From: a virus
Lineage: Duplodnaviria; Heunggongvirae; Uroviricota; Caudoviricetes
Virus record (IMG/VR): IMGVR_UViG_2534681672_000003
Coordinates: 1-56,022 of that record
Strand: one strand, 5' to 3'
DNA length: 56,022 nucleotides
Below the pieces are notes generated by a model. The model searched no databases, had not been told where the DNA came from, and saw only the letters and a list, made by a program, of their open reading frames with translations. Position numbers and translations under genes: made by a program. Shown piece by piece: positions 2,519-35,282 of this stretch (positions within the stretch are counted from its first letter, which is position 1; each line of letters begins with the position of its first letter).

Positions 2519-4914
2519 TTAATACTCTCCCCCATTTGCGCATCAGTTAATTCTTTATGCCAGAGACGAAGATTTCTCAAATGGCCGAATAGATGACGAG
2601 TTCCCGATGTGGCTTGACCTCCAATTCGAATAAAGGTCCGTGTTTTTACGCCCGTCCACTCCGTTTTCATAGTTTTAGTAGCCTCACCGTTAGAAACTAC
2701 TCGTTTAGTACCATCAGAATAAATATTAAAACCACCAATGAATTTTCGAACATCAGTTCGACCAGCAAACACACTAGAAACGTAAGTACTTGTCGACGCT
2801 TTATAAGTTTGTATATAAAGCTGACCGTAACATTTCTCAGTTGTGTTAAAAGCGTATGTAATTGACTCAATAGGTGGCACACCAGAAAAATCAAAAATAC
2901 GCGGTGCTACATTAGGAGGAATATCGCCCCAATTTCTATTGACCTCGACAAGACACGTAAGCGGTCTATTATAGATATTATTTTCAGTTGGGATCGTCAC
3001 CATATCACTGGAGCGGGTTGCGGGTGCAGTTGTCGTAATAACAAAAGATGAAGCACATCCGCCGTTTTCAAATTGTGGTGTTGCAAGGTAAATATAATCT
3101 CCCGCTTCAGTTATACCACCTTTTTTCGGCGCATACTGAATCATTGCGCCAATTAAGGCTTCACCTTCAACAGCTTCTATAGTTGCCTCATAGAAAATCC
3201 ACCCTGTAACCGGATCTTTAGTTGCAGTAGCTGCTATTCTATTGGCTGCTCCGCCAGTTTTTTCTATTATCAGAGTTCCGAAAGTTAAATAAGCATCTCC
3301 TAAAAATGTATAAACCGACCCATCGTATTTTTCAAAACGCAAACGACAACGAAGACCATCAGGAGCTTTAACCCTGCATGAAACAGTGCAATACTTATTA
3401 TCGCCACTAACATCAATCCCCCGGGATGCACTGCATGTATGCAGACTAAGTGCAGATGATTGTCCTGTCATATTATCTTTTGTTCGCATTTTGGCATATG
3501 AAAAACCAAATTCATCAACACCATTATTAGTTTTATCGATATTGCTGGTACTCGTCCATTCAGCGGGAGTATTGGATTTAACAAAATAGTTAGTGCGCTG
3601 TCCTTCAATCAATAAACCTTCTTTTTCAAATCGTGGCTCATCAATTTTAGCAACACTAAATACGCCTGATTTATTGATATATGTGGCAGTTGATGCGCGT
3701 TTAAACTTAACAACCTTGTCGCCAGGCATCGTTATTTCATCATCACCAATAACAATTTTTTTATATGACGGCGAAAAGCCCGTAATCATATCCAGTGAAT
3801 CGTTAAACGGTATCCACACATCAGGCAGTGGCTGTAAGACATATTTATACGGCTCTGCTGCCTGACTTGCATACTCTCTGGCTGCGTCTTCACTTGCTTT
3901 AGCTGCTGTCTGGCTTGCTGCCGATGCTTTCGCCGAGTTCGCCGCTGCAGTCTCGCTTGTCTTTGCATTGGTTTCACTGGTTTTTGCCGCTTTTTGACTG
4001 TTGGCTGATGCAGTGGCAGAAGCAGCCGCCGCGCTTGCAGAACCAGCTGCCGCGCTCTCGCTTTGGGCTGCTGCAACCTGGCTGTTTTTCGCCGCAGTTT
4101 CGCTGGCTTTGGCATTCGTTTCGCTGGTCTTCGCTGCCGTCTGGCTGGACTTTGCGTTAGTTTCACTCGTCTTCGCAGCTTTCTGGCTGTTAGCCGCAGC
4201 AGTTGCTGATCCAGCTGCTGAAGTCGCAGAACCGGCTGCCGCGCTCTCGCTTTGGGCTGCTGCAACCTGGCTGTTTTTTGCCGCAGTTTCACTGGCTTTG
4301 GCATTCGTTTCGCTGGTTTTCGCTGCCGTCTGGCTGGACTTTGCGTTGGTTTCGCTCGTCTTTGCGGCTGTCTCGCTATTTTTCGCGTTGGTTTCTGATT
4401 TTTTGGCTGCTGTCGCGGAGTTTGCCGATGCAGTCTTTGAGGTCGCTGCCGCCTGTGCACTATTAGCTGCATTCGTTTCTGAGGTTTTCGCCGCGTTCTT
4501 TGATGATGCCGCTGCAGTTTCGGATTTCTTTGCCGCCGCTGCGCTCTGAGAGGCGGCTTCGGCGTTGCGTGCCACTTCTTCCACCATTGCCTCAAAACGA
4601 CGCAATGCCTCCGGCATGACATCATCTTCCGTCATGGCACCGAGAAAATCATTCAGCGTACCTGGTCTGGAGCCTTCATAGACGGTAATGGTCCCGGCAT
4701 GTGAAGGCGGAAAACCTTCAACCAGCAGGGTGACGCTGTACTGGCCATACTCAACATCCATGCTGTAACGTCCGGCTTCATCCGGATTTTCAGAAGCCAC
4801 CGTGTTCACCAGTACCGTGGTGCTGTTACGCTTTGCCTTCAGTTGAATAGTGCAGTTCTGTATTGGTTTTCCCGCACCATCTTTCAGCACACCTGAGATT
4901 TTTACTGCTGCCAT
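2515..4914 (-). CDS. stf: side tail fibre protein (lambda Stf-like N-terminus, divergent C-terminus)
   Basis: The N-terminus MAAVKISGVLKDGAGKPIQNCTIQLKAKRNSTTV... is collinear with lambda Stf. The ATG at 4914 follows a GGAG ribosome-binding site. The middle of the protein is an Ala/Ser/Thr/Lys-rich repeat. Confidence 0.85.
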   Translation of the reverse strand: MAAVKISGVLKDGAGKPIQNCTIQLKAKRNSTTVLVNTVASENPDEAGRYSMDVEYGQYSVTLLVEGFPPSHAGTITVYEGSRPGTLNDFLGAMTEDDVMPEALRRFEAMVEEVARNAEAASQSAAAAKKSETAAASSKNAAKTSETNAANSAQAAATSKTASANSATAAKKSETNAKNSETAAKTSETNAKSSQTAAKTSETNAKASETAAKNSQVAAAQSESAAAGSATSAAGSATAAANSQKAAKTSETNAKSSQTAAKTSETNAKASETAAKNSQVAAAQSESAAAGSASAAAASATASANSQKAAKTSETNAKTSETAAANSAKASAASQTAAKASEDAAREYASQAAEPYKYVLQPLPDVWIPFNDSLDMITGFSPSYKKIVIGDDEITMPGDKVVKFKRASTATYINKSGVFSVAKIDEPRFEKEGLLIEGQRTNYFVKSNTPAEWTSTSNIDKTNNGVDEFGFSYAKMRTKDNMTGQSSALSLHTCSASRGIDVSGDNKYCTVSCRVKAPDGLRCRLRFEKYDGSVYTFLGDAYLTFGTLIIEKTGGAANRIAATATKDPVTGWIFYEATIEAVEGEALIGAMIQYAPKKGGITEAGDYIYLATPQFENGGCASSFVITTTAPATRSSDMVTIPTENNIYNRPLTCLVEVNRNWGDIPPNVAPRIFDFSGVPPIESITYAFNTTEKCYGQLYIQTYKASTSTYVSSVFAGRTDVRKFIGGFNIYSDGTKRVVSNGEATKTMKTEWTGVKTRTFIRIGGQATSGTRHLFGHLRNLRLWHKELTDAQMGESIK
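3998..4370. repeat. about two tandem copies of a 189-bp (63-codon) unit inside stf
   Basis: GCAGAACC(A/G)GCTGCCGCGCTCTCGCTTTGGGCTGCTGCAACCTGG recurs at 4037 and 4226. The protein segment AAKTSETNAKSSQTAAKTSETNAKASETAAKNSQVAAAQSESAAAGSA is repeated. Confidence 0.8.
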
Positions 4915-4925
4915 ATCCACTCCAC

Positions 4926-17352: not shown

Positions 17353-18143
17353 TTACGCCAGTTGTACGGACACGAACTCATCAGGGTCAGCCAGCAGCAT
17401 CAGCGGTGCTGACTGAATCATGGTGAACTCACGCGCCGGATCGCCGGTGGTCACCCAGTTTTTCGGGTAGCGGGCAGAGGCGTTAATGCCTTCGCGCTGT
17501 GCGTCCGCATCCTGAATGCAGCCATAGGTGCGCAGACCGCGTGCCTGAGTGTTCCCCAGCACCATCGTGTTGTCCGGCAGGAAGTTCTTTTTGACGCCGT
17601 TTTCCACGTACTGTCCGGAATACACGACGATGGCCACATCGCCATACATTCCCTTATAGGACACCGCTTTGCCCAGGTCTTTTACCGCTGTCTCCAGCTC
17701 GGAATGAGAGCCGCGACGGGTATCCAGCTTCTCCCTGACGGCTTTGAAAGAACGGAACAGCGCCCAGCCTTTCGGATCAAACACGATGATATTCACCACA
17801 CCGCTGGCGTTCAGCGCGTAGGCTTCGATATCGTCTGTCGGGTCATACGTGGACTTGTCACGCTTGCTCCACTCCGTGCCGCCGGACTGCGTGATGTTAT
17901 TCGCCTCACTGCGGCCCATATCCACCTCAACCGGATCGAAGGCTTCACCGGTCATGGTGTATTTGCCCTTAAGCACGGCAGAAACTGCCTGCATCTCTTC
18001 GACCTGAGCAATGGCCAGCTCTTCGTCACGCATGTTCTGCATGATGATGCGACGGCGGCGGTAAGTCGGGTCCGCCAGATTCTGCGGATCTTCATCCGGC
18101 AGGCGACGCAGGGTCATCTGCGGATTCACCTCATGCTTCGGCT
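17353..18143 (-). pseudogene. E: major capsid protein E, 3' part (codons ~79-341), separated from its 5' part by the insertion
   Basis: The minus strand reads (K)PKHEVNPQMTLRRLPDEDPQNLADP...EFVSVQLA, collinear with the lambda gpE C-terminus. No start codon or ribosome-binding site is left at the break. Confidence 0.95.
18134..18143. repeat. left copy of the 10-bp direct repeat (att core) TGCTTCGGCT
   Basis: Identical to 29567-29576. It lies exactly where E homology stops. Confidence 0.9.
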
Positions 18144-18277
18144 ACATGAGTCAAATATGAAAGGATGTGAATGATTTGATTACGTTTTAGCTATAGAATT
18201 GAAATGGAAAATCCTTGAATGCAATACAACGTGCAATACATGGATGAAAACCATCACTCATTTAACAAGAGGAATCT

Positions 18278-19183
18278 ATGCGCTCACCCAACAGAATGCA
18301 TGAACGCTCAACATTTTATAAGTATATGTCGTTGAATACCGCGAAGATTGTTCTTGATTCATGCAGCCTTAGATGGAGTTCTCCGGTCCTATTTAATGAC
18401 CCTTTTGATGTTCCAAGAGAAGTTATGCCTGGTATTAACGAAATTAATATTGGCAAAGCTTTAGCCCGCAAGTTAATAGCGGAGTTGATTACCCCCAGAG
18501 AAGACATACAAAATTTAAACCCTAGAATTAGAACAATGCTAAGTGATTTCCAAAAGTCATTTCCTTTAGGCATACCCGCAGGATTAATTGAAAGATTTCA
18601 AGAAATGGTAAACATTCCACCAGTTGGGATTGGCGCTCCTGCGGCAATACAAGAAATGAAAGATGTCTGGCGAGGAATGCTTAATAACAGAAGGATTTTG
18701 TGTTTATCTGAGAGCCCTATAATCACTCCTATGTGGAATCACTATGCCGATAAATATAAAGGTATAGTTATCGAATTTGATTGTGTAGACTTTCTGGATA
18801 GCGCTTGGTTAATAGCCAAACCTATGAAATACACAGATGAAATGCCTCTAACTCACACTGCTGAAGGGATGGCCGAGTTGCTTTTCATGCCAGACAATAA
18901 GTCAATTGAATATATCAATAATGAGATAATATTCATAAAAACAGAAGAATGGGCATATGAAAGAGAGTGGAGAATTTCAACCTACGCTAGGCCAAATAGC
19001 ACTGGTCAATATAGCGACTTAAAATTTCACCCTTTTGAGTTAAAATCTGTAATACTTGGTCCTCTTTTTGATGCCAGCGAGTTCGATGAAGTCGCATCAC
19101 TAGTTAAGATGTATCCAAGAGCGAAATTATTTAAAAGTTCATTTGGGAACGACAGAAAAATATCCATAGTACCACTACCTTAA
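18278..19183 (+). CDS. cargo protein with a DUF2971-like N-terminal signature
   Basis: 301-aa ORF with a ribosome-binding site AAGAGG. FYKYMSLNTAKIVLDSCSLRWSSPVLFNDPFD resembles the DUF2971 family signature, by recall. The gene is AT-rich, opposes the core genes, and has its own terminator. Confidence 0.55.
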   Translation: MRSPNRMHERSTFYKYMSLNTAKIVLDSCSLRWSSPVLFNDPFDVPREVMPGINEINIGKALARKLIAELITPREDIQNLNPRIRTMLSDFQKSFPLGIPAGLIERFQEMVNIPPVGIGAPAAIQEMKDVWRGMLNNRRILCLSESPIITPMWNHYADKYKGIVIEFDCVDFLDSAWLIAKPMKYTDEMPLTHTAEGMAELLFMPDNKSIEYINNEIIFIKTEEWAYEREWRISTYARPNSTGQYSDLKFHPFELKSVILGPLFDASEFDEVASLVKMYPRAKLFKSSFGNDRKISIVPLP

Positions 19184-19213
19184 AAGGTCAAATGCTTTTG
19201 ACAAATAAAATCT

Positions 19214-19239
19214 ATCGCCAGTTTTACTGGCGACTTTTA
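19214..19239. terminator. hairpin plus T-run between the convergent cargo and Nu1-like genes
   Basis: TCGCCAG-TTTTA-CTGGCGA followed by CTTTT. Confidence 0.6.
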
Positions 19240-19289
19240 AGCAACAAAGAACCACCTAAGCACTCTTCCTACCTATGGTTTCATTTGTT

Positions 19290-19841
19290 TTAACTTCGCT
19301 GATTATCCTTGATATACCTTTCAGCCATATCTGGAATGTTATCTGAGATCTGGTAAGCTCGAATAAATGCTTTACTGACCTCCATCTTAATGAAGTCCTG
19401 ATACCGTTTTCCCATGCCAGGAAACTGTCGACAGATCGCAAGTGGAAGACTATCAATGATTGCTCCAACTTCCCCAGTTAATTTCGACAAGGCATAAGTC
19501 GCAAATGCAGTGTCAATTACCTCACCTGTTTCGCTGGCATTCTTCAGTTCCTGTGCGTCGGCCTGCGCACGCGTAAGTCGATGGCGTTCATACTCAATAG
19601 TCCCTGGCAGGAGATCTGCCTCGCTGGCCTGCCGCAGTTCTTCAACCTCCCGGCGCAGCTTTTCGTTCTCAATTTCAGCATCCCTTTCGGCATACCATTT
19701 TATGACGGCGGCAGAGTCATAAAGCACCTCATTACCCTTGCCACCGCCTCGCAGAACGGGCATTCCCTGCTCCTGCTAGTTCTGAATGGTACGGATACTC
19801 GCACCGAAAATGTCAGCCAGCTGCTTTTTGTTGGCTTCCAT
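19290..19841 (-). pseudogene. Nu1-like small terminase gene with an in-frame TAG at codon 22
   Basis: MEANKKQLADIFGASIRTIQN*QEQGMPVLRGGGKGNEVLYDS... The first ~100 codons are almost identical to the resident Nu1, and the C-terminal ~80 codons are divergent. The ORF track picks up only from M27 (19763). Confidence 0.8.
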
Positions 19842-20085
19842 TGTTCATTCCACGGACAAAACCAGAGAAAGGAAACGACAGAGGCCAAAAAGCCTGTTTT
19901 TAGCACCTGTCGTTTCCTTTCTTTTTAGGGGGTGTTTTTAATAAAAACATTAAGTTACGGCGAAGAAGAACGGAAACGCCTTAAACAGGAAAATTTTCAC
20001 AAATAGCGAAAAACTGCGCGCCTGACGCCCCGTAGCCTGTCAGATCGCCGGAAAGGACCCGCCAGCCAGAGCGGGCCCTAATTTC
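19842..20085 (-). other. satellite cos region (cosB-cosN-cosQ-like); predicted cosN 12-mer at 20019-20030
   Basis: Collinear, without indels, with the resident cos at 35829-36048. The 12-mer CGCCTGACGCCC replaces AGGTCGCCGCCC. Confidence 0.75.
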
Positions 20086-20086
20086 A

Positions 20087-20470
20087 TCAACCAATCAGCT
20101 TATAGCGACCATCCCGTGCATTGCGGCGTACACGCTCAATCTTGAGGCATAGCGCCGCATCTGGCTTTTTTGGGACAGGTACGCGGCAATATTCAGAAGC
20201 GCGAGGAATATTATTTATCCAGTCGATCACTTCACTTAAATACCAGGCCTTACGCCCTTCCGTAACCTGCACACGCTCCGGGAACTCTCCACTAGCCTCA
20301 AGGTTTAGCAGTGTACGACGACTCAGGGTTGTAATTTCCATCACCTGATTCATATCAACAAGGCGCTCGCTTAAACACATTTTGTCAGCGATAGCTTTTA
20401 ATTCCTCTACAGCTGGATTCGGGTACATCATTTCGGCAATTGGCTTAAGGTCATTGTAATCATTCTGCAT
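20087..20470 (-). CDS. AlpA/MerR-superfamily HTH protein with N- and C-terminal extensions
   Basis: 127-aa ORF. The core MEITTLSRRTLLNLEASGEFPERVQVTEGRKAWYLSEVIDWI fits the AlpA-family pattern. A GGGGGA ribosome-binding site is present, and the gene is tightly coupled behind the D-like gene. Confidence 0.6.
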   Translation of the reverse strand: MQNDYNDLKPIAEMMYPNPAVEELKAIADKMCLSERLVDMNQVMEITTLSRRTLLNLEASGEFPERVQVTEGRKAWYLSEVIDWINNIPRASEYCRVPVPKKPDAALCLKIERVRRNARDGRYKLIG

Positions 20471-20481
20471 TGTATCCCCCT

Positions 20482-20823
20482 TTACACACGAGCCAGCGGC
20501 TGAACAGAAATACCTGAGCCAACAAACGCTGCAACCTTTACTGACAGTTCTTTAACAGACTCAGGCCAGTTCAGAGCATCAACATTTAAGACACCTGTCT
20601 TATAGACCTGAGCCTGTGTTTTTTTCGCGGTGTCGATTTGTACAGCGGAAACATAAACCGCTTTACCTACGCTCGAACCATCCCATACCACCAGTGCACC
20701 TGTTGCATCTTCCTGCATCAGTGGCGTAAATGCAGGAATTACCCCTTTATTAGCTGAAAATATCCCCAGCGTAGTCACCAGTGCTTCAGTGCCAGCCATG
20801 AGTTCAGTGTAATGAGTAGCCAT
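20482..20823 (-). CDS. head decoration protein, lambda gpD-like
   Basis: 113-aa ORF. It aligns by eye with gpD at TPLM..LV.WDG..., YK.G..., WPE... and AF.G..IS. Confidence 0.65.
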   Translation of the reverse strand: MATHYTELMAGTEALVTTLGIFSANKGVIPAFTPLMQEDATGALVVWDGSSVGKAVYVSAVQIDTAKKTQAQVYKTGVLNVDALNWPESVKELSVKVAAFVGSGISVQPLARV

Positions 20824-20832
20824 TGCTCCCCC

Positions 20833-21873
20833 TTAGCCAATGCGAACGGTAACAAAACGATTGATGCGGGCCGGTATTGGCTGTGGTGCTGAATGTGTCT
20901 GCACATATTCAATAGCCGGATCACCAGGCACAATATAGTTTTTCGGTGCAAGTTCGGCTTTAGTCAGCCCCATTCGGATTAGCTCCGGATCCTGAATACC
21001 GCCATAGGCGACAATCCCCTGAAGAGCCGTATTGCCAAGCACCATCAAATCAGGATCAAGGAAATGTTTTTCTGTTCCGTCCTCGTCGGTATAACGCCCG
21101 CTGTAAACAACAATCGCAACATCGCCCATATACCCTTTAAAACTCACCGAATCACCAAGGTCTTTAAGGGCCGTTTCCAGTTCGGAATTAGAACCACGAC
21201 GGGTATCCAAAGCCTCTTTTATCGCTCTGAATGAACGGTATTTCTTCCATACATTACCACCCATAATGATGATATTAGTGACGCCCTCACTAAATTCTGC
21301 GTAGCTCTCAATATCATCATTTGGATCAAAAGTTTCTTTATCCTTACCTGACCACTCAGTACCGCCAGACTGAGTGATGATATTTTGTGGTTTTATATTC
21401 CAGTCCAGCTCATAACGTTCAATACCATCGCCCTCAATGATATTTTTCCCCGTTGTGATAGCCTGAACAGCAAGCCATTCAATACGTGCACGAATAGCTT
21501 TAGCCTGATTTACAATCGCCTGTTTAACTTTAATATTACGCGCCCCAAAAGCATTGTATTGCTCAGGTGACACACCAGCAGGGCGCACAGCTAACTTATT
21601 TGGATCAATGCTGCTTTTCGGCTTCATATAACCTGGACGAATTGTTTTTGATTCGTATCCCTCATCTCGTGAAACTTTACTGCCCACCATAGGAGAGCAA
21701 AACGCCGCGATCGGGATATTTGGATCGTCGATCGTATCAAGAATAATGTCTCTCGATTCAAACATTACCGAGCGAGTGAAAAACAAACTGGTAAACAACG
21801 CATTTAATTTTTTTTGTACATCTACAGCATTAACCACCTGTACAAGCTGAGTAGGCGAATATAAATCAACCAT
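20833..21873 (-). CDS. major capsid protein, lambda gpE-like (satellite-encoded)
   Basis: 346 aa from MVDLYSPTQLVQVV. Conserved blocks are QSGGTEWS..DK.T.DP.DDIE.YA and LDTRRGSNSELETA.KDLG..VS.KG..GDVAIVVYSG. AAGAGG lies upstream of the ATG at 21873. Confidence 0.85.
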   Translation of the reverse strand: MVDLYSPTQLVQVVNAVDVQKKLNALFTSLFFTRSVMFESRDIILDTIDDPNIPIAAFCSPMVGSKVSRDEGYESKTIRPGYMKPKSSIDPNKLAVRPAGVSPEQYNAFGARNIKVKQAIVNQAKAIRARIEWLAVQAITTGKNIIEGDGIERYELDWNIKPQNIITQSGGTEWSGKDKETFDPNDDIESYAEFSEGVTNIIIMGGNVWKKYRSFRAIKEALDTRRGSNSELETALKDLGDSVSFKGYMGDVAIVVYSGRYTDEDGTEKHFLDPDLMVLGNTALQGIVAYGGIQDPELIRMGLTKAELAPKNYIVPGDPAIEYVQTHSAPQPIPARINRFVTVRIG

Positions 21874-22069
21874 ACGCATCCTCTTTGCATTCATTAAAAA
21901 TAATTGTGGATATATGCTATCACCGATATTTGTCATGCGAACACATGCAACCGAGTGCAATGTTGTATAAAGTTTTGGGGTGACAACTTCAGTGCGGACA
22001 ATTAGTGTTAATATCTTCACTCCCTTTGGTCGGGATTTATGTAGCATGCAGGAAAATTTATTTTTTCCG

Positions 22070-22790
22070 GCCTTTTTGTGCACAGAAAACCCCCAGCTAG
22101 GCTGGGGGTTCCGGAAAGCTTTCAGCTTTGAGCCAGTTATTAAAACCCCTTTTGATTTGTTAAAACACTTTGCGGTCTGGCAACTGCAAGTGTCAAACAA
22201 GAAATCAAAAGGGGGTCCCAATGGGGAACGAAAAGAGCTTAGCGCACACCCGATGGAACTGTAAATATCACATAGTTTTTGCGCCAAAATACCGAAGACA
22301 GGTGTTCTACAGAGAGAAGCGTAGAGCAATAGGCAGTATTTTGAGAAAGCTGTGTGAGTGGAAAAGCGTACGGATTCTGGAAGCTGAATGCTGTGCAGAT
22401 CATATCCATATGCTTGTGGAGATCCCGCCCAAAATGAGCGTATCCGGGTTTATGGGATATCTGAAAGGGAAAAGCAGTCTGATGCTTTACGAGCAGTTTG
22501 GTGATTTGAAATTCAAATACAGGAACAGGGAGTTCTGGTGCAGAGGGTACTACGTCGATACAGTGGGTAAGAACACGGCGAAGATACAGGATTACATAAA
22601 GCACCAGCTTGAAGAGGATAAAATGGGAGAGCAGTTATCGATTCCCTATCCGGGCAGCCCGTTTACGGGCCGTAAGTAACGAAGTTGGATGCAAATGTCA
22701 GATCGTGTGCGCCTGTTAGGGCGCGGCTGGTAAGAGAGCCTTATAGGCGCATTTGAAAAACCTCCGGCTATGCCGGAGGATATTTATTTT
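22070..22790 (+). mobile_element. IS200 (IS200/IS605 family) copy; ends approximate
   Basis: tnpA is flanked by the characteristic hairpins CCCCCAGCTAGGCTGGGGG (left) and CCTCCGGCTATGCCGGAGG (right). The size is about 0.7 kb. Confidence 0.7.
22221..22679 (+). CDS. tnpA: IS200 Y1 (HuH) transposase TnpA
   Basis: MGNEKSLAHTRWNCKYHIVFAPKYRRQVFY...HIHMLVEIPPKMSVSGFMGYLKGKSS... is the typical 152-aa IS200 TnpA. Confidence 0.92.
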   Translation: MGNEKSLAHTRWNCKYHIVFAPKYRRQVFYREKRRAIGSILRKLCEWKSVRILEAECCADHIHMLVEIPPKMSVSGFMGYLKGKSSLMLYEQFGDLKFKYRNREFWCRGYYVDTVGKNTAKIQDYIKHQLEEDKMGEQLSIPYPGSPFTGRK

Positions 22791-22801
22791 ATTGGCAATA
22801 T

Positions 22802-23251
22802 TTAAAACGGGATATCATCTCCCCATTGCTCATTATCTCCCACTGGTGGCTGGCTTCCTTGCTGATCTGCCTGTTGTTTTGCTCTGTTCAGTGCGTCAGT
22901 AGCCTGCCCCTGTTGGCCTTTATTGCCGCCCGGTCGCACCGATCGCGCACTGATTACGCTGTCTGCGATAACCTGCCAGCCCTGCCGCGTTTCGCCGTTC
23001 TGTCCAGTCCACTGGCTCATCTGCATGTTACCCGCCACGCTCAGGAGTTCGCCTTTGTGATGCTTTGCCAGCGCGTCGGCTTGTCTGCCAAACGCCAGGA
23101 CAGATAACCACATCGTCGCCTGACCGTCATCCGACTGACTGCAGGGCAGTGATACCGCCATACGCGCCAACGTCATGGGGGTGCCCTTGCTGGTCTGTTT
23201 TGTCTGCGGGTCGTCCACCGACCGCCCGTAAACTGATATTTGCGCCGTCAT
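22802..23251 (-). CDS. ssb: single-stranded DNA-binding protein
   Basis: 149-aa ORF with an OB-fold-like N-terminus and a Gly/Gln-rich linker. It ends with the canonical SSB tip ...DDIPF. Confidence 0.8.
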   Translation of the reverse strand: MTAQISVYGRSVDDPQTKQTSKGTPMTLARMAVSLPCSQSDDGQATMWLSVLAFGRQADALAKHHKGELLSVAGNMQMSQWTGQNGETRQGWQVIADSVISARSVRPGGNKGQQGQATDALNRAKQQADQQGSQPPVGDNEQWGDDIPF

Positions 23252-23493
23252 GCGGCCTGCTCTCCGGACTTAATATTGATTGTTGTCACTTCCTCCGCTT
23301 CAGCAATCTCCCGTTCGGTCAGAGTGGCAAAGTTTGCAGCCGCCGTTGTCATGAATGCGCTAATCAGTTCGGGATGTGCTTTCGCGTATCCTTCCCCGGC
23401 GTTGCGGTCGATGATTTTTATCGACACCCTTAACCAGTGTTCCGTCAAATCAAGGGCGTGCGATTGTGATTTTTTTGTGTGCTTCGCTGTCAT
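23248..23493 (-). CDS. hypothetical protein
   Basis: 81-aa ORF whose stop overlaps the ssb start by 4 nt. It lies directly downstream of the origin repeats. Confidence 0.5.
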   Translation of the reverse strand: MTAKHTKKSQSHALDLTEHWLRVSIKIIDRNAGEGYAKAHPELISAFMTTAAANFATLTEREIAEAEEVTTINIKSGEQAA

Positions 23494-23544
23494 AGGCTTT
23501 ATCTCACAGCAGTAAATTAAAATTTTTGCGTTTTAACCCTTCAC

Positions 23545-23767
23545 CTGTTCACCTTTTGATATTTTCTCTTTTAATTCATAATGTTAATGGGTGAACAGTT
23601 TCACAAAAACTATTCACCAACTGTTCACCACTGTTCACCCTTGAAGCTCAATAAACAATCAAAAAGGTGAACAGTGAATAGTTTGGTGAACAGTTCATAA
23701 ATAACTGTTCACCCTATAATATACTGATATAAAAGATATTTATGACAGGGTGAACAGTGGTGAACAG
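23545..23767. repeat. satellite replication origin: iterons GGTGAACAG / CTGTTCACC with AT-rich spacers
   Basis: The perfect 9-mer occurs 5 times forward (23590, 23666, 23685, 23749, 23759) and 4 times inverted (23545, 23621, 23631, 23705), plus degenerate copies. The region sits just after the replication gene. Confidence 0.8.
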
Positions 23768-23780
23768 TTATTCCATAAGT

Positions 23781-25601
23781 TTAATTTTTGCTATCGTCAT
23801 TAGTGACCGATACACATGATGGCATCCAGTCTTCTGATTCCTCCGTCAGGGTCACGTTTGAACGCAAACCGTGCTTCGTTTTCCGTTTCATATACTCCCT
23901 GCCATATTCCGCCATTGCCCCCGGCATATCTTTACCGAAGCGCGTCAGTGTTACAGGTTTACCAAACCCATGTGCCCTCATATAAGCCAGATAGGCATGA
24001 TAGAGATACCTGCGTGGGCTGAATGGCACAATTTCAGCATTACCCACTAACAGGCCATCACACATTACCGATGCCATGAGATAACCGCAGAAGTCCACCA
24101 GCGAATCCCCCTCTCGCTTTATCGCCAGTGCTTCTTCAGATTTCTGCTGCTCATATAACAGGCGTCTGGCTTCGTCCTGATCAGCAAACCTTGTAAGCAG
24201 ATGACGAATCACTACCGCCAGCTCACCTTCTATTTTTTCCGCCAGCATCGAATCGCGTTCGTTCTCCGGTACAACTTCCGAAAAATTGAATATCACCCGA
24301 CGACGTGAGATCCCCCCGCTGCGGTCACTGAATGACATGGCGTTATTGTTAACCGCCAGCACTACTGCCGGAATACGCGTTGAATAGGGGGCTTTGTGTT
24401 TCGGGTCAATTGCCACCTTGTCACCGCCTGTAATGGCCTTAATCCCTGCCCCATCACCAGCGTAGCGGGTCATATCCGGCATGATAATCAGCGAAAAGCC
24501 AACCACTAACGCACGTTCCCTTGCATCTTCCAGCGCCTTCATGCTTGCTGATACTGTATTAGCCTTACCCGCCAGCATGGTGCAAATCTCCGCCATCACA
24601 CTTTTACCACTTCCCCCCGGCCCTGTTACCTCAATGAATAACTGCCAGTCGTACCGGTTCGCCAGCACCATGAATAATGCCGCCAGTACGCGATCTGCCT
24701 TGCGGTCATTCTCAGCCACCGAACGGCGCAACCACTTCCAGAAATTCGGCGCATGTGTTGCCAGCGTTTCCCCCTCTGCTGGTGGGCTGAAAGGTAATTC
24801 ACTGGCAATTAACAACCAGTCGTTTTTGTTATGCTCCCGAAAGTTACCAGTTCTGGTATCAAATACCCCGTTACTGAATCCAATCAGGTTACGGGCTGTA
24901 TTCCCCATTACAGGCAAACTTAACTTCATGGTATCTACCGCCGATTTAATAGCGTTCTGCGAATAGCTGATCTCCGCATCAATGAAAATCTGCGCCATAG
25001 CACGCTGTAACTCTTTATCCTGAACCGGCTCCCATACAACGCCGTTGTAATGATGAACGGTGTCAGAGTCGGCATTGATTGCCAGTTCGCCGCCGTAATG
25101 TGCAAGGAGAACTTCACCGCGCTGGCTGGCCCCCATCTGATTCAACGCCAAAGATGAAGCACGCTCGTCATTTTTGCGCTCAGCCTTCTTCACTGGCAGT
25201 TCAATCACCAGACTTTCCCCATGCTCCGCTTCAGCTTTTAGGCCGACAAGGCGCGGAGTCCAGTCTTCAGGCTCTCGATCAACAAAGCTACGGTAACAAC
25301 GTGCTTCCTTTACGCCTGCAATAGCAAGTAATGTCGCAACCTTCGTCAGACTTTTCTCTGCAATCTTTCCGGCACGATAAACACGCACATAATGACGGCC
25401 TTCATCGATAATTTGCATATCATCCAGGTTTTCCAGTTGTTCCGTACCCAGAATGACTGGTGGTGTATCATCTGCTGCAATATGCTTACCTGCCCATTCA
25501 TTCCATTCTTTTGCATGGCTCCAGGCATCACTGCCAGCAAAAATGATGACTTCCGTCATTTTGTCGCGCGGTTGGTATTTTAAGTTCGGAGCACGTTTCA
25601 T
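23781..25601 (-). CDS. replication protein: D5/P4-alpha-type SF3 helicase (primase-helicase family)
   Basis: 606-aa ORF with the Walker A motif GPGGSGKS. The surrounding pattern is typical of the phage/plasmid primase P4-family C-terminal domain. The ATG overlaps the upstream stop (ATGA). Confidence 0.8.
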   Translation of the reverse strand: MKRAPNLKYQPRDKMTEVIIFAGSDAWSHAKEWNEWAGKHIAADDTPPVILGTEQLENLDDMQIIDEGRHYVRVYRAGKIAEKSLTKVATLLAIAGVKEARCYRSFVDREPEDWTPRLVGLKAEAEHGESLVIELPVKKAERKNDERASSLALNQMGASQRGEVLLAHYGGELAINADSDTVHHYNGVVWEPVQDKELQRAMAQIFIDAEISYSQNAIKSAVDTMKLSLPVMGNTARNLIGFSNGVFDTRTGNFREHNKNDWLLIASELPFSPPAEGETLATHAPNFWKWLRRSVAENDRKADRVLAALFMVLANRYDWQLFIEVTGPGGSGKSVMAEICTMLAGKANTVSASMKALEDARERALVVGFSLIIMPDMTRYAGDGAGIKAITGGDKVAIDPKHKAPYSTRIPAVVLAVNNNAMSFSDRSGGISRRRVIFNFSEVVPENERDSMLAEKIEGELAVVIRHLLTRFADQDEARRLLYEQQKSEEALAIKREGDSLVDFCGYLMASVMCDGLLVGNAEIVPFSPRRYLYHAYLAYMRAHGFGKPVTLTRFGKDMPGAMAEYGREYMKRKTKHGLRSNVTLTEESEDWMPSCVSVTNDDSKN

Positions 25602-25885
25602 TTGTTACCTCCGGCAACTAACATTGCCCGAATTTTACGGATATAGCCTGCGGCACGCCTCTGATTATCTGTCTTGCAATTTTTTACCAGAATGAAATCT
25701 CTTTCGAACTGCTGACGCGGCATAACACATTCAAAATCATAACCATCACGCAAATAAGAGACACGACGATCATCAACCGAAATAATCTTTACCCGATAGC
25801 CATAGCTGTCTTTGAAAATATCCCCAAGGCTGATTTTTGAATGAGTTTGACCGCTGGCAATAAAGCCAGAAAATTTATTTTTCAT
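25598..25885 (-). CDS. DUF4222-like small protein
   Basis: 95 aa. The pattern Y.V.II..D..RV.Y.R.G...ECVM.R..F..DF..V matches the family signature by recall. Confidence 0.5.
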   Translation of the reverse strand: MKNKFSGFIASGQTHSKISLGDIFKDSYGYRVKIISVDDRRVSYLRDGYDFECVMPRQQFERDFILVKNCKTDNQRRAAGYIRKIRAMLVAGGNK

Positions 25886-25888
25886 TTT

Positions 25889-26113
25889 TTATTCTCCGGT
25901 ATAGCTCTGGTCGTGTATTTTTATAGCTTCATCCAGCTCTTTGATGACAGGATCAAGTAACGTAATTAACGCTCCAGCTAAATTAGCATCCCGTTCATCG
26001 TGTTCCGCATTTGTTGTCCCATCAAGCCAGGTTGATAAGATTTCTCGCATATTTTTGCCACAAACGAGCGCGTTTTCAGCATGTGTCAGCACTTTAAAAT
26101 AAAGATCATTCAT
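25889..26113 (-). CDS. hypothetical protein
   Basis: 74-aa ORF in the leftward operon. No family was recognised. Confidence 0.45.
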   Translation of the reverse strand: MNDLYFKVLTHAENALVCGKNMREILSTWLDGTTNAEHDERDANLAGALITLLDPVIKELDEAIKIHDQSYTGE

Positions 26114-26471
26114 GGCACACCTCCTGACGAATACGGGCGGCGAATATCATCACGTAGCCAGTTGGGAATTGCTGGCGGGCTTCCTGTTCGCTGGCGGCCT
26201 CGATGTGTATTACGCGTGGTTGTGCGGTGCTCAGGGCGATAAAACGCCAGATGAAATTGTTTTCGCATTTCTGAATAAACAGCGTGTTTTCTTCACGCCC
26301 TTTCCAGAAAGCCGCAGTATAGCCCATCTCCTTAACCATCTTGCGGGCATCAACCAGCGTGTCAGCGGCAACATGTACCGTAGTTGCTCCATCTGCCATG
26401 CGGTCGTGGTGTAGTGCCAGAAAGGTGTATATAAATTTAGGGTGAGTTTGGGTATGCTGTGTTCCAGCCAT
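26106..26471 (-). CDS. Icd-like (host cell division inhibitor-like) protein
   Basis: Start set at MAGTQHTQTHPKF with a GAGG ribosome-binding site. FIWRFIALSTAQPRVIHIEAASEQEARQQFPTGYVMIFAARI fits the Icd-like pattern, and a weaker first repeat lies upstream. Confidence 0.55.
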   Translation of the reverse strand: MAGTQHTQTHPKFIYTFLALHHDRMADGATTVHVAADTLVDARKMVKEMGYTAAFWKGREENTLFIQKCENNFIWRFIALSTAQPRVIHIEAASEQEARQQFPTGYVMIFAARIRQEVCHE

Positions 26472-26557
26472 AATCGTTACCTCGTTTAACGGTTTGGTTA
26501 GAAGCCCGGTTAGTGTTCGCGCACTGCCGGGTTTCGTCGTTTTTATGAATCGATCAT

Positions 26558-26660
26558 TGTGAGATACATAGCGACCATGATGTGAGATATACATTATAAT
26601 GTGGTGATATACATTGCAAGTGTTTTTATATCTCACTTTTGTGTATAGTGATATACACAT
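26558..26660. promoter_or_regulatory. divergent control region with repeated operator-like motif GTGA(G/T)ATA(TA)CAT
   Basis: Copies lie at about 26558, 26580, 26600 and 26646, with an inverted copy at 26627. The region sits between the leftward icd-like operon and the rightward RHH-like gene. Confidence 0.6.
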
Positions 26661-26679
26661 AACAAATTGGTGATTAACT

Positions 26680-26982
26680 ATGTCTGTATACAAAAATGCA
26701 AAATCGCAAATGACAACGATCAGGGTTCCCCACGATGTTATGGAGGGCATGGAATCCGTAAAACTGGACGGCGAAAGCAACGCCGGATTCATAGTAACCG
26801 CCATGCGCGGTGAGATCGCCCGCCGCCAGGCAGAAGGAAGCGGAGAAAATCCCCTCGTGTCTTCACTGGATGCCTTAGCTAAGGTCGAACAAATCGGCAT
26901 CAAGGCAGCGGAGGAAATCGGGCAACTCGTAGCCGTCGCTCGTGAAGAACTCCAGCGGCGTAAAGCCAAAGAATCTGAATAA
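26680..26982 (+). CDS. putative ribbon-helix-helix (CopG/Arc-like) regulator
   Basis: TTIRVPHDVMEGMESV...NAGFIVTAMRGEIARR fits a strand-helix-helix layout. The true start may be the internal M at MTTIRVP. Confidence 0.45.
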   Translation: MSVYKNAKSQMTTIRVPHDVMEGMESVKLDGESNAGFIVTAMRGEIARRQAEGSGENPLVSSLDALAKVEQIGIKAAEEIGQLVAVAREELQRRKAKESE

Positions 26983-27332
26983 TTACTATCAGCGCCGTGA
27001 TGTGAGTAACTACGGCGCATTGCTATGTAAATACTGGCAATAAACAGAAAAGGTAGTTCTACTCCGAATAATTTTATCTGACACTACTCCTGAACTAACA
27101 TGCGCTTATCTTACAGGATATAAATATAGATCCATAAAATCACGATTAAATAAAGCCGCTCCAAACATAAACCACACCCAACGCTTAACAAGATAGCAAC
27201 AAACAGATAAATAACTTGCAGAAATATTTATCGCAAGGATTATCATTATTAATTACAAATCACTTTACCAAGTCATTCCCCTCTCTTATCATAAAGAGAA
27301 AGTAATAAATAAGTTAAGGGAGTTAGAATACT

Positions 27333-27869
27333 ATGAATCTAAAAAAAATAGCCACAAACATAAAAAACAAGATAATAGAAACATTCAATAAACTTATATT
27401 AGAGGCATCTAAAACCCCCACACAAGATGAAATTAAAATACTTGAGAGAAGAAGTAAAAAGTTTAATTACTCCTTTTTCTCATACGCAGTCACAGGAGCC
27501 ATAATGGTTTTTTGCTCTCAACCATTAATAAAATACGCAAACCCAATGCTTATTTTATTGAGTGGTCTGTTACTGTCTATCATCATTATCCTTCTCAGAA
27601 TGATTTATATTTCACAAGCGAATGCATCATGGACAACCAAAAAACGTTCACATGTACTAGTTCATTTTCTTTCTGCATGTTTCATAGCGTCAACATTGAC
27701 GTTGTTATATCAGGCTTACGATAATAACATCACACACAAATTGTACTGTAAAAATATACAACAACTTATTGAAAAAAGGATAGAAACAGAAAAAAATATC
27801 AGCATATTCAGTGGGATGCAATGCACCCCGGCATATGATTACTCTTTATTTGGATTTAATCTCTTATAA
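27333..27869 (+). CDS. cargo membrane protein (about 3 predicted TM helices)
   Basis: 178-aa ORF in a very AT-rich block. The hydrophobic stretches are AVTGAIMVFCSQPL, LILLSGLLLSIIIILL and LVHFLSACFIASTLTLL. Confidence 0.55.
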   Translation: MNLKKIATNIKNKIIETFNKLILEASKTPTQDEIKILERRSKKFNYSFFSYAVTGAIMVFCSQPLIKYANPMLILLSGLLLSIIIILLRMIYISQANASWTTKKRSHVLVHFLSACFIASTLTLLYQAYDNNITHKLYCKNIQQLIEKRIETEKNISIFSGMQCTPAYDYSLFGFNLL

Positions 27870-27938
27870 AGAATGTTATTACTGATTTGAGTGCAAATTC
27901 TCAAATCAGTAATTCATAATATTTTATTCTGAGATAAT

Positions 27939-28166
27939 TTAAACTACCCACTCACCTCGAATCCATGCCTGCACTTCTGAAAGACGATATGCAACAGCAG
28001 TGGAGCCAATCTTGATCCGCTTAGGAAATTTCCCTTCCTTCTCCAGCTTCCAGCGTGTGCTGTTCGCAAGAGTGGTTAGCTCCCGACATTCTTTCTCACG
28101 GATCATACGATCGATGTTAGGAATGTACTCCAAACCCTTTTTATCAACAATCGCCATTTTTTTCAT
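27939..28166 (-). CDS. alpA: AlpA-family transcriptional regulator/excisionase
   Basis: 75 aa. IREKECRELTTLANSTRWKLEKEGKFPKRIKIGSTAVAYRLSEVQAWI is a typical Phage_AlpA HTH. The gene lies directly downstream of int. Confidence 0.8.
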   Translation of the reverse strand: MKKMAIVDKKGLEYIPNIDRMIREKECRELTTLANSTRWKLEKEGKFPKRIKIGSTAVAYRLSEVQAWIRGEWVV

Positions 28167-28167
28167 G

Positions 28168-29403
28168 TTAACCAGCCTTTTGTTTGAGGATTATCACTTT
28201 TGAATCAGCACCTGCGATGCTATTGAGATATGTAGTCCAGAGTTCCAGAGCATCCAGTTTTTTAGCCATAAACTTACTCCGGTTGTAAACACCTGCCACG
28301 CCAGGTAGCGCATGGCCTAACAGTTGTTCTACTACATAAAATTCAACACCGAGATCACTTAGATGAGTAGATAGCGTTCTTCTAAGGTCGTGTAGTGACC
28401 ATTGTTTTTCATGGCCCAAACGTTTACCGATTTTCCCCCCAATCTTGCTTACGCTTTCTCTAATTCGCAGACTTCCCAGCACATAACCAGTATGTTTTGT
28501 CTCTTCGTGAACATCCGTTACCCACTGTCGTAGAATTTCAGGTACTGGTCTGACGATTTCAACACCAGTTTTTGAGTGATCTTTTGGTACCGTCCAAACC
28601 CAACTTTCGAGATCCCATTCGCTCCATTCAGATAATCGGGCTTCACTCATTCGACATCCAAATACTGTACAAAGCACAAACATTTTTCGCGTGTATTCAG
28701 ACATTAGTTTTAAATCAGGCTCGACAAAAATTGCCTTCCAGAGCTGGCCCAGTTCGGCTTCATCCAGAACCCGATCCCGCTTACCTGCAATCTGCCCCAC
28801 ATCACTCATGCGCAAATCCTTTAAAGCATCACATGTCGCGTACTGGCGTACCCGACAAAAACGAAGAGCTAATTTAGTGTCAGAAAAAACATACGCCGCC
28901 ATAACTGGTGCATTACGTTTAATTCGGTCAAAACAGTCCAGCCATTCATATAGGTGAGTGTCATTTACAGGCAAATGACCGATATAGGGAAAGATATGCT
29001 TTCGAAATCTGCCAAGCGTTACAGCATGAGTTTTACGACGCACCTTACAGTAATTTTCATACCAGTAATTTAGTGCATCCTCCACTGTGACCGGCTTTAA
29101 GCGTTCTTCAGCCTGAATCTTAATCTGGATACGCGGATCACGTTTGTCAGCCAACCAACCACGGCACTCGTCGCGCTTTTCCCTTGCCTGTTTGAGTGAC
29201 ATATCAGGATATTTACCCAACGTTAGCCAGACCGGAGCAGCCCGGCCACCTGCTAACCTGTAGAAGAAAACAAAGCTCACAGCCCCCTTGGTACTCACAC
29301 GAATAGAAAGCCCCTTTCCATCAGCAATGGTGATCTGCTTTTCTCTGGGTTTCCCCAGATATCCTTTAAGCGCTTTGTCGCTCAGTTTGTTCTCGCCAGC
29401 CAT
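28168..29403 (-). CDS. int: tyrosine integrase, P4-type (DUF4102 arm-binding N-terminus)
   Basis: Start at MAGENKLSDKALKGYLGK. The N-terminus has GKGLSIRVSTKGAVSFVFFYRL, and the catalytic region has HDLRRT...LGHALPGVAGVYNR. The gene abuts the right att copy. Confidence 0.9.
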   Translation of the reverse strand: MAGENKLSDKALKGYLGKPREKQITIADGKGLSIRVSTKGAVSFVFFYRLAGGRAAPVWLTLGKYPDMSLKQAREKRDECRGWLADKRDPRIQIKIQAEERLKPVTVEDALNYWYENYCKVRRKTHAVTLGRFRKHIFPYIGHLPVNDTHLYEWLDCFDRIKRNAPVMAAYVFSDTKLALRFCRVRQYATCDALKDLRMSDVGQIAGKRDRVLDEAELGQLWKAIFVEPDLKLMSEYTRKMFVLCTVFGCRMSEARLSEWSEWDLESWVWTVPKDHSKTGVEIVRPVPEILRQWVTDVHEETKHTGYVLGSLRIRESVSKIGGKIGKRLGHEKQWSLHDLRRTLSTHLSDLGVEFYVVEQLLGHALPGVAGVYNRSKFMAKKLDALELWTTYLNSIAGADSKVIILKQKAG

Positions 29404-29566
29404 TTTTAGCCCCAAAAAGCAATACAAGCTGCAATACAGAGATGATTGCAACACACAGATAACGAGGAAAATTCAGTGAAAGCGCCAGATAAACTTATTC
29501 TTTATTATCAAAAGATTAAGTGTAAAAACCAGCAACTACACGAAAGCCTCAGAAAGCCATGCTAAG

Positions 29567-29576
29567 TGCTTCGGCT
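29567..29576. repeat. right copy of the 10-bp direct repeat (att core) TGCTTCGGCT
   Basis: Identical to 18134-18143. E homology resumes here. Confidence 0.9.
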
Positions 29577-29811
29577 TGACATATCCCGGCGTAAATTCAG
29601 AGGTGGAGCCGCCACGGGAACGGATAACCTCACCGGAAACAATCGGCGAAACGTACAGCGCCATGTTTACAAGTCCCGGAATTTGTGAGAGATAGACTTT
29701 CTCCGTAGTGAAGGGATAGCTCTCACGGAAAAAGAGACGCAGAAACAGCGGATCAAACTTAAATTTCTGCTCATTTGCCGCCAGCAGCTGGGCGGTTGTG
29801 TACATCGACAT
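29567..29811 (-). pseudogene. E: major capsid protein E, 5' part (codons 1-82)
   Basis: MSMYTTAQLLAANEQKFKFDPLFLRLFFRESYPF...EFTPGYVKPKH matches the lambda gpE N-terminus. The frame then runs into satellite DNA (LAWLSEAFV*). Confidence 0.95.
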
Positions 29812-30208: not shown

Positions 30209-30604
30209 TTACACTGGTGTGTTCAGCAAATCGTTAACGGCATCAGATGCCGGGTTACCTGCCGCCAGCGGTGTCGGTGCCCCCTGCATCAGACGATCCA
30301 GCGCAGTGTCACTGCGCGCCTGTGCACTCTGTGGTGCTGCGGCCAGAATGCGGCGGGCCGTTTCCACGGTCATACCGGGGGTTTCTGCCAGCACGCGGGC
30401 CTGTTCTTCGCGTCCGTGAGCCTCCTCACAATTGAGGATCCCCATAATGCGGCTGTTTTCTGCCGCAACCGCTGCGGTGATCTGTGCGTTCACGTCCGGC
30501 TGCGCCGCGCTGGCGTTCTCGCCCTCTGTCGCTGACACCACGTCAGTAACGTCAGCCTGCAAAGCAGTGGCTGAAACAGTTGTTGATTGAGTCTCTTTGG
30601 TCAT
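30209..30604 (-). CDS. Nu3: scaffold protein Nu3 (internal start in the C frame)
   Basis: MTKETQSTTVSATALQADV...NDLLNTPV, 131 aa as in lambda. It lies downstream of, and is untouched by, the duplication. Confidence 0.8.
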   Translation of the reverse strand: MTKETQSTTVSATALQADVTDVVSATEGENASAAQPDVNAQITAAVAAENSRIMGILNCEEAHGREEQARVLAETPGMTVETARRILAAAPQSAQARSDTALDRLMQGAPTPLAAGNPASDAVNDLLNTPV

Positions 30605-30863
30605 TCGCCCTCCTGAGAGACGGGATTTACGTGCATCCAGTGCCTCACGCATAACGGTGATCGCATCGGTGCTGTTGACAAGTTCATCAGCCAGTCCGGC
30701 ATCAATGGCCTCCTGACCGCTGTACACTGCAGCCTCGGTATCCAGCACAGCCTGCACGGACAGGCCGGTATATGCCGACACCTTCTGCGCAAACATCCGG
30801 CGGGTTGCATCCATCCGGGACTGCAGTGTCTCCCGGACGTCATCCGGAAGATGGCTGTAGGGG

Positions 30864-31009
30864 TTGCCATCCACCTTATGGCTGCCGCTGTAAATCAGCG
30901 TGATTTCCACGCCCTGTTTCTCCAGCGCAGCACCGTTTGCCATCCACCTTATGGCTGCCGCTGTAAATCAGCGTGATTTCCACGCCCTGTTTCTCCAGCG
31001 CAGCACCGT
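30864..31009. repeat. perfect tandem duplication, 2 x 73 bp, inside gene C
   Basis: TTGCCATCCACCTTATGGCTGCCGCTGTAAATCAGCGTGATTTCCACGCCCTGTTTCTCCAGCGCAGCACCGT occurs at 30864-30936 and again at 30937-31009. Confidence 0.95.
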
Positions 31010-31581
31010 AATTACTGTGAGCCATCATGACGCCGATGGAGCCTGTCCGGGCGGTCTGCGTGACCAGACGCCGGGAGGCGGCACTGGCAAGCAACTGACC
31101 TGCACTGCAGTTCATGTCGTTGGCAAGCGTCCATACCGGTTTTATGTCACGCACACGGGCGATGATGTCAGCGCAGTCAAATGCCCCCGCCACCATCCCG
31201 CCGGGCGTGTCCATATCGAGCAGAATGCCGTCCACCATCGGATCGCTGGCAGCCTGTTGCAGACGGGCGATAATGCCGTTGTAACCGGTCATCCCCGAGT
31301 ACGGCTGCAGCGCCCGCGTCCGGCTGACCAGCGTGCCGGACACCGGCAGCACGGCGATGCCGTTCATGACCTGATAACTGCGGGCCTGTCGTGGTCCGTC
31401 ATCATCACCGGATAATGCCAGCGTCGCGAGTGCCTCCTGGGCAGTCAGGCTGTCGCCGGACACCGCATCCGTCAGGCGGCTGATCCCAAGCTGGCCTGCA
31501 AGCGCACAAAAGAAAACCCGCGCATAGGCGGGTTCAAGCATCAGCGGCTCATTAAAGGCCATACTGGCAATATGCGGGAGA

Positions 31582-35282
<3,701 letters not shown>

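Follow-up and report, generated by a model that had tools for sequence, protein, structure and literature searches.

The cohesive-end sequence GGGCGTCAGGCG, carried at its cos site by the satellite embedded in the prophage studied here, extends the list of natural cosN alleles; it predominates in a family of satellites already known and is paired in this case with a helper carrying the canonical lambda 12-mer GGGCGGCGACCT. Judging from its distribution, this 12-mer is a stable natural allele, one among several that lambda-like E. coli prophages and satellites share, and no change peculiar to the present satellite, and we hold it to be probable that it constitutes a distinct and stable allele of the lambda-type nicking site, borne by a PICI embedded in gene E of a DLP12-locus prophage. 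No new packaging or competition mechanism is revealed by the data. The term window is used hereafter for the whole stretch of DNA that was analysed (56,022 nucleotides).

The window is 99.7% identical to the DLP12-locus lambdoid prophage of E. coli SCU-102. [quoted passage not shown] The element, of about 11.4 kb (18144-29566, minus strand), was delimited from its gene content, the split gene E and PMC10111431. A 10-bp att core common to both gene E halves (E nt 236-245) is found at 18134-18143 on the attR side and at 29567-29576 on the attL side, gene E being divided into an N-terminal fragment (29567-29811, minus strand, E nt 1-245) and a C-terminal fragment (17353-18143, minus strand, E nt 236-1026). 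The satellite genes follow the order integrase, AlpA, Icd-like, DUF4222, primase, SSB, (IS200C), capsid protein, decoration protein, AlpA-like HTH, cos, terS' and DUF2971, and three PICI zones stand in sequence, that of integration, that of replication with primase and SSB, and the late one with capsid, decoration and cos. The integrase, a tyrosine integrase according to its Pfam domains and adjoined by AlpA, is 99-100% identical to the integrases of other E-embedded loci, and the primase is of the D5 type. The late module upstream of cos (20087-21873, minus strand) comprises an E-family capsid gene (20833-21873), a gpD-like gene (20482-20823) and the AlpA-like HTH gene (20087-20470). While interrupting helper gene E, the satellite encodes a capsid and a decoration protein of its own: the former shares about 45-48% identity with the C-terminal part of helper E, the latter about 38% with helper gpD. 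The helper late genes lie on the minus strand in a lambda-like order (Nu1, A, W, B, C, D, then the split E), with the terminase genes at 33383-35828 (minus strand; Nu1 35283-35828, A 33383-35308), and helper gpA is the sole large terminase subunit in the composite.

The gene adjoining the satellite cos, terS' (Nu1 family, 19290-19841, minus strand), is annotated with an internal stop in SCU-102. Its N-terminal part of about 102 aa is almost identical to helper Nu1 and its C-terminal part of about 80 aa, which binds TerL, is diverged. It is interrupted by a TGG>TAG change at codon 22 (19776-19778), in the region of the DNA-recognition helix, and is uninterrupted (183 aa) in the related loci L001, L129, L144 and L150; in strain 95-3322, too, the annotation of the satellite terS gives an intact gene. 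The stop, shared by SCU-102, leaves a 157-aa ORF starting at Met27, and the same ORF is present in locus L132. An IS200C-like insertion, also annotated in SCU-102, separates the SSB gene of the satellite from its capsid gene at about 22000-22750; relatives such as L001, with a spacing about 711 bp shorter, lack it. In the helper, the head gene C (S49 peptidase/scaffold) contains an exact 73-bp tandem duplication (30864-31009) which breaks the frame into two ORFs (30876-31715 and 30209-30943). This duplication does not occur in the 99.7%-identical SCU-102, in which the gene is annotated intact and the distance between the helper and satellite cos sites is 73 bp shorter. With gene C frameshifted, the helper of the window is probably head-defective, and the terS' stop, the IS200C insertion and the helper gene C frameshift suggest that the satellite copy of the window may be inactive. 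The cargo slot between cos/terS and attR (18144-19290; L235-L242 among the relatives) differs among related elements: it contains DUF2971 in the window and, in relatives, DUF262+HEPN, DUF3892, an abortive-infection protein or a protein with a TIR domain, and has the appearance of a hotspot for genes of the defence type in E-embedded satellites. Two tandem 189-nt copies, 84% identical, were found at 3943-4320 within the ORF 2515-4920 (minus strand); for its SCU-102 counterpart the annotation reads prophage tail fiber N-terminal domain protein.

The satellite cosN 12-mer GGGCGTCAGGCG and the helper cosN, which is the canonical lambda 12-mer, each occur once in the window, at 20019-20030 and 36006-36017 respectively, both on the minus strand. 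They mismatch at 5 of 12 positions, namely cohesive-end positions 6, 8, 9, 10 and 12 (20025, 20023, 20022, 20021 and 20019 on the plus strand), and three further changes are located within 20011-20040, at 20013 (bp 18), 20015 (bp 16) and 20035 (bp -5). The pairwise alignment of the cos-Nu1 homologous block (satellite copy 19534-20061, minus strand; helper counterpart 35521-36048) has 528 columns and 30 differences, with about 95% identity outside cosN; the other 498 bp hold 22 differences, i.e. about one per 23 bp. This alignment bears out the preliminary description of this DNA, which had reported five differing cohesive-end positions, three more changes nearby and about one change per 25 bp in the rest of the block. 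When the site is considered as pre-specified, the differences are enriched both against the whole block (hypergeometric test: P = 2.5e-4 for the 12-mer, P = 1.0e-4 for the 30-bp interval) and against the non-coding background, defined as 19845-20061, where 23 of 217 bp differ (P = 4e-3 and 6e-3). A scan statistic, in which the site is not pre-specified, gives P = 0.045 for the 12-mer and 0.009 for the 30-bp interval over the whole block, and no significance against the non-coding background (P = 0.24 and 0.17), because the non-coding cosB is about 3-4 times more diverged than the coding part of Nu1. The cluster of differences in cosN is therefore genuine, yet modest after allowing for the divergence of the non-coding cosB.

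A five-way alignment of the cos sites of lambda, the window helper, the satellite, the prophage L233 (which carries GGGCGTCAGGCG) and the phage PhiR46_1 revealed that the cosQ-containing block GGGTCCTTTCCGG, R3, R2, R1 and all spacings are invariant, without indels, and that only positions 6-12 of the 12-mer and a few flanking bases vary. The conservation of cosB-like and cosQ-like flanks announced in the preliminary description is confirmed by this alignment. Upstream of cosN, the GGGTCCTTTCCGG block of the satellite is in register with that of lambda. The cosQ-side segment (20031-20060, minus strand) is composed of the block GGGTCCTTTCC at 20050-20060, unchanged across lambda, helper, satellite, L233 and PhiR46_1, and of a spacer of 17 nt, polymorphic within the satellite family, whose last bases, TACG, abut the nick. 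The satellite cosN retains bp 1-5 (GGGCG) and the CG pairs at both nicks, read directly as CG/GGGCGTCAGGCG/CG with slashes for the nicks, and the symmetric pairs -2/14, -1/13 and 2/11 are kept. The satellite cosB is of lambda type (19845-20018, minus strand): R3 (19966-19981, bp 50-65, a position taken from PMC9026076), R2 (19907-19922) and R1 (19866-19881) are identical to those of lambda, R2 and R1 form an inverted repeat, the distance to cosN is as in lambda, and the ATG of terS' is at bp 190. Since cosQ, R3, R2, R1 and the spacing are intact, a lambda-type terminase is expected to recognise the satellite site, in agreement with what the preliminary description had proposed for recognition and for sticky ends of a different sequence. 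The site is likely a lambda-type cos and a putative substrate of a lambda-type terminase, leaving 12-nt ends of another sequence than those of the helper. Packaging redirection of the Rpp type does not fit the site: the satellite cosB has the lambda R3, R2 and R1, and the gene adjoining cos is a chimera of the Phage_Nu1 family, interrupted by a stop codon.

The position of the differences within the 12-mer can be compared with the genetics of lambda and its relatives. The bp 7-12 of cosN are naturally variable, N15 differing at 9 and 12 and gifsy-1 at 8, 9 and 11, and mutations in this right half have minimal effect while those in the left half are severe (about 10-fold yield cost for G2C, none for C11G); the TerL of lambda also cleaves the N15 cosN as well as its own (PMC4669245). 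The cosN of mEp213/LLS reads GGGCGGCGCGCT (PMC12315714). Four of the five satellite differences fall in the half of cosN shown to be tolerant, the exception being G6>T, a change in the left half, where function is sensitive, that none of the other phage alleles shows. Natural cosN variation of lambda-like phages is reportedly also treated by Vahanian and colleagues (2017, Virology 509:140).

A set of 98 satellite cos sites was assembled by IMG/VR scans anchored outside the 12-mer and from loci of E. coli genomes, the sites being included on the presence of the satellite-specific left flank, i.e. the end of the AlpA-like gene. The 12-mer of the window satellite was found identical in 54 of these 98 sites, the canonical GGGCGGCGACCT in 38, GGGCGGAAGGCG in 4 and other 12-mers in 2. 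GGGCGTCAGGCG remains unchanged beside at least 6 different cosB/terS sides, ranging from almost helper-identical to a wholly different GGTGGTGGTTTTG type whose TerS, of 183 aa, is unrelated. Several variants of the 17-nt spacer are likewise found beside GGGCGTCAGGCG, and single spacer types carry two or three 12-mers. When the 1.85-kb late module upstream of cos was clustered at a 1% divergence threshold, most GGGCGTCAGGCG copies fell in one tight clade; clusters 4, 7, 8 and 13 each contained both GGGCGTCAGGCG and the canonical 12-mer, and cluster 15 contained GGGCGTCAGGCG and GGGCGGAAGGCG. This mixing within clusters, together with the variety of the flanks, indicates that the 12-mer re-assorts with both of its flanks, the distances involved being shorter than 20 bp. 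Neither local hypermutation nor a burst of point substitutions is retained as an explanation, the 12-mer being identical across elements whose flanks differ. Substitutions accumulated in the window satellite, as the preliminary description had it, are consequently not supported: the 12-mer is fixed in more than 50 satellites and in some prophage-type sites, and it re-assorts.

The survey suggested at that stage, of a covariation of cosN with the C-terminus of Nu1/TerS, yielded none across the satellite and prophage cos sites. The same GGGCGTCAGGCG stands beside an intact chimeric TerS, the same gene interrupted by a stop, a remnant of 64 aa, an unrelated TerS, a full-length helper-type Nu1 or no terS whatever. 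Two non-embedded PICIs, L155 (NZ_CP061101.1, next to tRNA-Ile/mug) and L157 (NZ_CP035836.1, near yejO), have the same late module; their cosN is canonical, their cosB is not of lambda type (GGTGGTGGTTTTG motif), and each has a TerS of its own, of about 180 aa and about 35% identical to Nu1.

The allele is also present with phage-type left flanks, in L231-L234. In particular, L233 has a Nu1 98% and a gpA 99.2% identical to those of the window helper, with B, D and an uninterrupted E, and carries GGGCGTCAGGCG. The prophage L349 of strain AVS0969, all genes of which are annotated intact over the 20 kb read, carries GGGCGGAAGGCG and has a gpA differing from that of the window by 5 of 641 aa. GGGCGGAAGGCG, which differs from the lambda 12-mer at 5 of 12 positions, is also carried by the deposited phage PhiR46_1. 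Among 80 listed IMG/VR loci with an exact lambda cosB, not selected on cosN, the canonical 12-mer was counted 69 times, GGGCGGAAGGCG 7 times (about 9% of the lambda-like prophages of this sample), GGGCGTCAGGCG once and other alleles twice. None of 50,697 deposited phage records has exactly GGGCGTCAGGCG, the nearest being PhiR46_1 and YDC107_1, each 2 mismatches away. Six copies of GGGCGTCAGGCG in complete E. coli genomes, with the flank of L232/L234, correspond to one degraded prophage remnant of porcine ETEC (e.g. ETEC1730) in which Nu1 is truncated and gene A is missing; these copies were rejected as evidence of a working phage with GGGCGTCAGGCG, L233 being the better case. A scan of 185,579 species-representative genomes for TACGGGGCGTCAGGCGNGC returned 36 unrelated matches, mostly from GC-rich taxa and with no enterobacterial representative among them, which are taken as chance matches, uninformative on taxonomic spread. 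In the library of papers searched, both variant 12-mers and their reverse complements matched unrelated papers only, and no phage-related one.

These phage-type occurrences bear on another explanation, according to which the satellite cosN would have been copied from, and matched to, a minority lineage of lambda-like helpers using GGGCGTCAGGCG or GGGCGGCAGGCG, the canonical-cosN prophage of the window being merely its current host. Such helpers could be represented by the phage-type contexts with the exact GGGCGTCAGGCG (L231-L234 and the six ETEC genomes) and by L142, which shares the spacer and has GGGCGGCAGGCG, 1 nt from GGGCGTCAGGCG; moreover, in L001, GGGCGTCAGGCG with its lambda-like right flank resembles the phage-context prophages. 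However, the helper is canonical for each of the embedded copies examined, and there is no hint that TerL discriminates among the alleles, because near-identical gpA proteins accompany three different ones. The data are compatible with either direction of transfer, from phage to satellite or the reverse, and we consider this explanation unlikely.

The pairing of helper and satellite cosN was also compared among composites. In ten composites (the window, SCU-102, NRG857c and seven other strains), which are all those examined that have a variant satellite, a canonical helper 12-mer is associated with a GGGCGTCAGGCG satellite, and the helpers have at least 3 different right-end flanks. Three IMG/VR contigs each contain one locus of canonical flank pattern and one variant satellite site. 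The GGGCGTCAGGCG satellites are E-embedded in 41 cases and not in 2, against 4 and 14 for the canonical ones (Fisher P = 1.4e-8), GGGCGTCAGGCG is carried by 41 of 47 E-embedded satellites versus about 1% of phage-type sites, and a canonical cosN occurs in 0 of 29 satellites with a lambda-type cosB versus 4 of 13 with another cosB type (P = 0.006), but these embedding and cosB counts lack phylogenetic independence, most of the variant elements belonging to one clade with at most 1% divergence. All 39 satellites of lambda-type cosB considered for GGGCGTCAGGCG carry it (39/39). Conversely, the E. coli composite N1420 (L347, NZ_CP176489.1) has a canonical cosN in both its helper and its E-embedded satellite, with cosB types that differ, that of the helper not being of lambda type and that of the satellite being of the GGTGG type. 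The difference between helper and satellite cosN is therefore usual in this satellite family, and a strictly obligatory difference is rejected.

The left end of the satellite and the right end of the helper are complementary at 7 of 12 positions, with only the GGGCG run pairing in register, and the predicted duplex energy is about -9 kcal/mol for the mismatched ends versus -19 kcal/mol for matched ones, which points to poor annealing; the preliminary description had foreseen none. The ends of satellite and helper are thus likely different and non-annealing. As viable yield is down about 4-fold with 2 cohesive-end mismatches (PMC4669245), 5 mismatches would essentially prevent the cyclisation of a chimera. 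The satellite's own ends would match each other, since excised satellite concatemers carry the satellite cos only. We know of no step in the propagation of helper or satellite that needs annealing between their ends, and their incompatibility consequently looks like a by-product.

The same figures could be read as an adaptive insulation in cis, in which the satellite cosN would have been selected to differ from that of the helper where cosB specificity is shared. The composite contains two co-oriented cos sites about 16 kb apart, predicted targets of one terminase. Cos-to-cos packaging of the unexcised composite would give, from the satellite cos to the helper cos, a headless and satellite-less product of about 45 kb (if the composite is of about 61 kb as in NRG857c) and, from the helper cos to the satellite cos, a product of about 16 kb; the mismatched ends would not allow cyclisation, and the spread of headless, satellite-less defective helper genomes would thereby be prevented. 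Should this be true, the 12-bp cohesive end would be an exchangeable cassette between phages and satellites. The consistent canonical helpers of the ten composites, over at least 3 helper backgrounds, the enrichment of GGGCGTCAGGCG in E-embedded elements, the lack of canonical cosN among the 29 satellites with a lambda-type cosB and the mismatched duplex predicted at about half stability all fit with such an insulation. Against it, the counts are mostly those of one clade, N1420, which serves as a natural control for this idea, is canonical on both sides, and GGGCGTCAGGCG is also found in phage-type contexts without a satellite. Moreover, the satellite would draw no clear benefit, both chimeric products being dead ends for it either way. 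Selection for insulation appears quite unlikely in these conditions. The role in a packaging competition advanced in the preliminary description is likewise unsupported, given N1420 and the small effect of bp 7-12 changes on cleavage (PMC4669245).

A decaying or inactive site, whose changes would come from the lost constraint on an unused cos, could be suspected from the terS' stop, the IS200C insertion and the frameshifted helper gene C of the window copy and from the fact that HE-PICI transfer was never shown, but it is very improbable, as decay would scatter changes and differ between copies, whereas one and the same 12-mer is found in more than 50 elements of varying flanks, and bp 1-5, both nick-flanking CG pairs, cosQ, R3, R2, R1 and the spacings are intact, without indels.

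The reading of a distinct and stable natural allele accommodates these observations as follows. Helper Nu1 would bind the lambda-type R3, R2 and R1 of the satellite, helper gpA would nick 12 bp apart at the conserved CG/G...C./CG positions, and the packaged satellite DNA would have 12-nt 5' ends matching each other and not those of the helper. The differences of the allele would be mainly placed where lambda genetics shows a relaxed constraint (bp 7-12). The 12-mer and a few flanking bases would be inherited and exchanged as a small cassette, giving rise to the apparent cluster, with an adjacent cosB/terS side that would have been repeatedly replaced by helper-like sequence. The incompatibility with helper ends would then be a by-product and not a demonstrated competition device. 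The anatomy of the site, the way the alleles are distributed and their re-assortment are shown by the sequences, and cleavage by the helper terminase, the structure of the ends and the neutrality of the allele are what we infer from them; as regards neutrality, the contrast in GGGCGTCAGGCG frequency between satellites and phages goes against it, being explicable under pure neutrality only through shared descent.

If this holds, a satellite family would routinely have cohesive ends unlike those of its helper. With GGGCGTCAGGCG, the variability already known from the right half of the lambda-type cosN gains a new natural allele. The occurrence of nearly the same TerL beside three alleles also provides a natural test set for the tolerance of lambda TerL towards cosN. 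From a practical point of view, the ends of lambda-like prophages and satellites are not predictable as GGGCGGCGACCT, because about one in eight of the lambda-cosB sites of the IMG/VR sample carries another allele.

Several known systems share part of these characteristics. One is that of the HE-PICIs of the site group E:Phage_cap_E:80, exemplified by Eco567.11capE in 50icd of NRG857c (Tommasini, Mageeney & Williams 2023, PMC10111431), which, like the window satellite, has the same site, the 10-bp core, its own capsid gene and a cos in the late zone. This element (L235) carries the same GGGCGTCAGGCG beside a canonical helper, a difference that goes unmentioned in PMC10111431, where its cos is described only as a 258-bp, 90%-identical match to the helper and terS is said to be lacking. 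The window satellite is distinguished from 11capE by its chimeric terS pseudogene and its DUF2971 cargo gene. Excision and replication were shown for 11capE only, and helper virions were looked for, with none detected (PMC10111431).

The lambda-like cosN variants of the Feiss laboratory resemble the present one by their 12-nt 5' end, their conserved left half and nick-flanking pairs, and their differences concentrated in bp 7-12 (PLoS One 2015, PMC4669245). Terminases make no distinction between one of these alleles and another. Unlike these phage variants, GGGCGTCAGGCG departs from lambda at 5 positions, bp 6 included, and predominates in satellites. The Rpp-type PICIs of E. coli, for instance EcCICFT073 (Fillol-Salom et al. 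2019, PMC6739421; Feiss et al. 2022, PMC9026076), share with the window satellite lambda-like helpers, the use of the helper TerL, which for the window satellite is a predicted one, and a lambda-like cosQ and cosN. The cosN of Rpp-type elements is nearly identical to that of the helper and their cosB is unrelated, being read by an Rpp-TerS complex; the window satellite is the reverse, with a helper-type cosB (R3/R2/R1) and a different cosN.

To our knowledge, P4 and the cos-type SaPIs share the cohesive-end sequence of their helper. Like the satellite described here, P4 with P2 and cos-type SaPIs (SaPIbov5 with phi12/phiSLT; PMC5052747) are satellites carrying a copy of the helper cos, and SaPIbov5 resembles it further by carrying a capsid-protein homologue (PMC5052747). 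Unlike in P4/P2 and the SaPIs, the ends of the window satellite differ from those of its helper at 5 of 12 positions.
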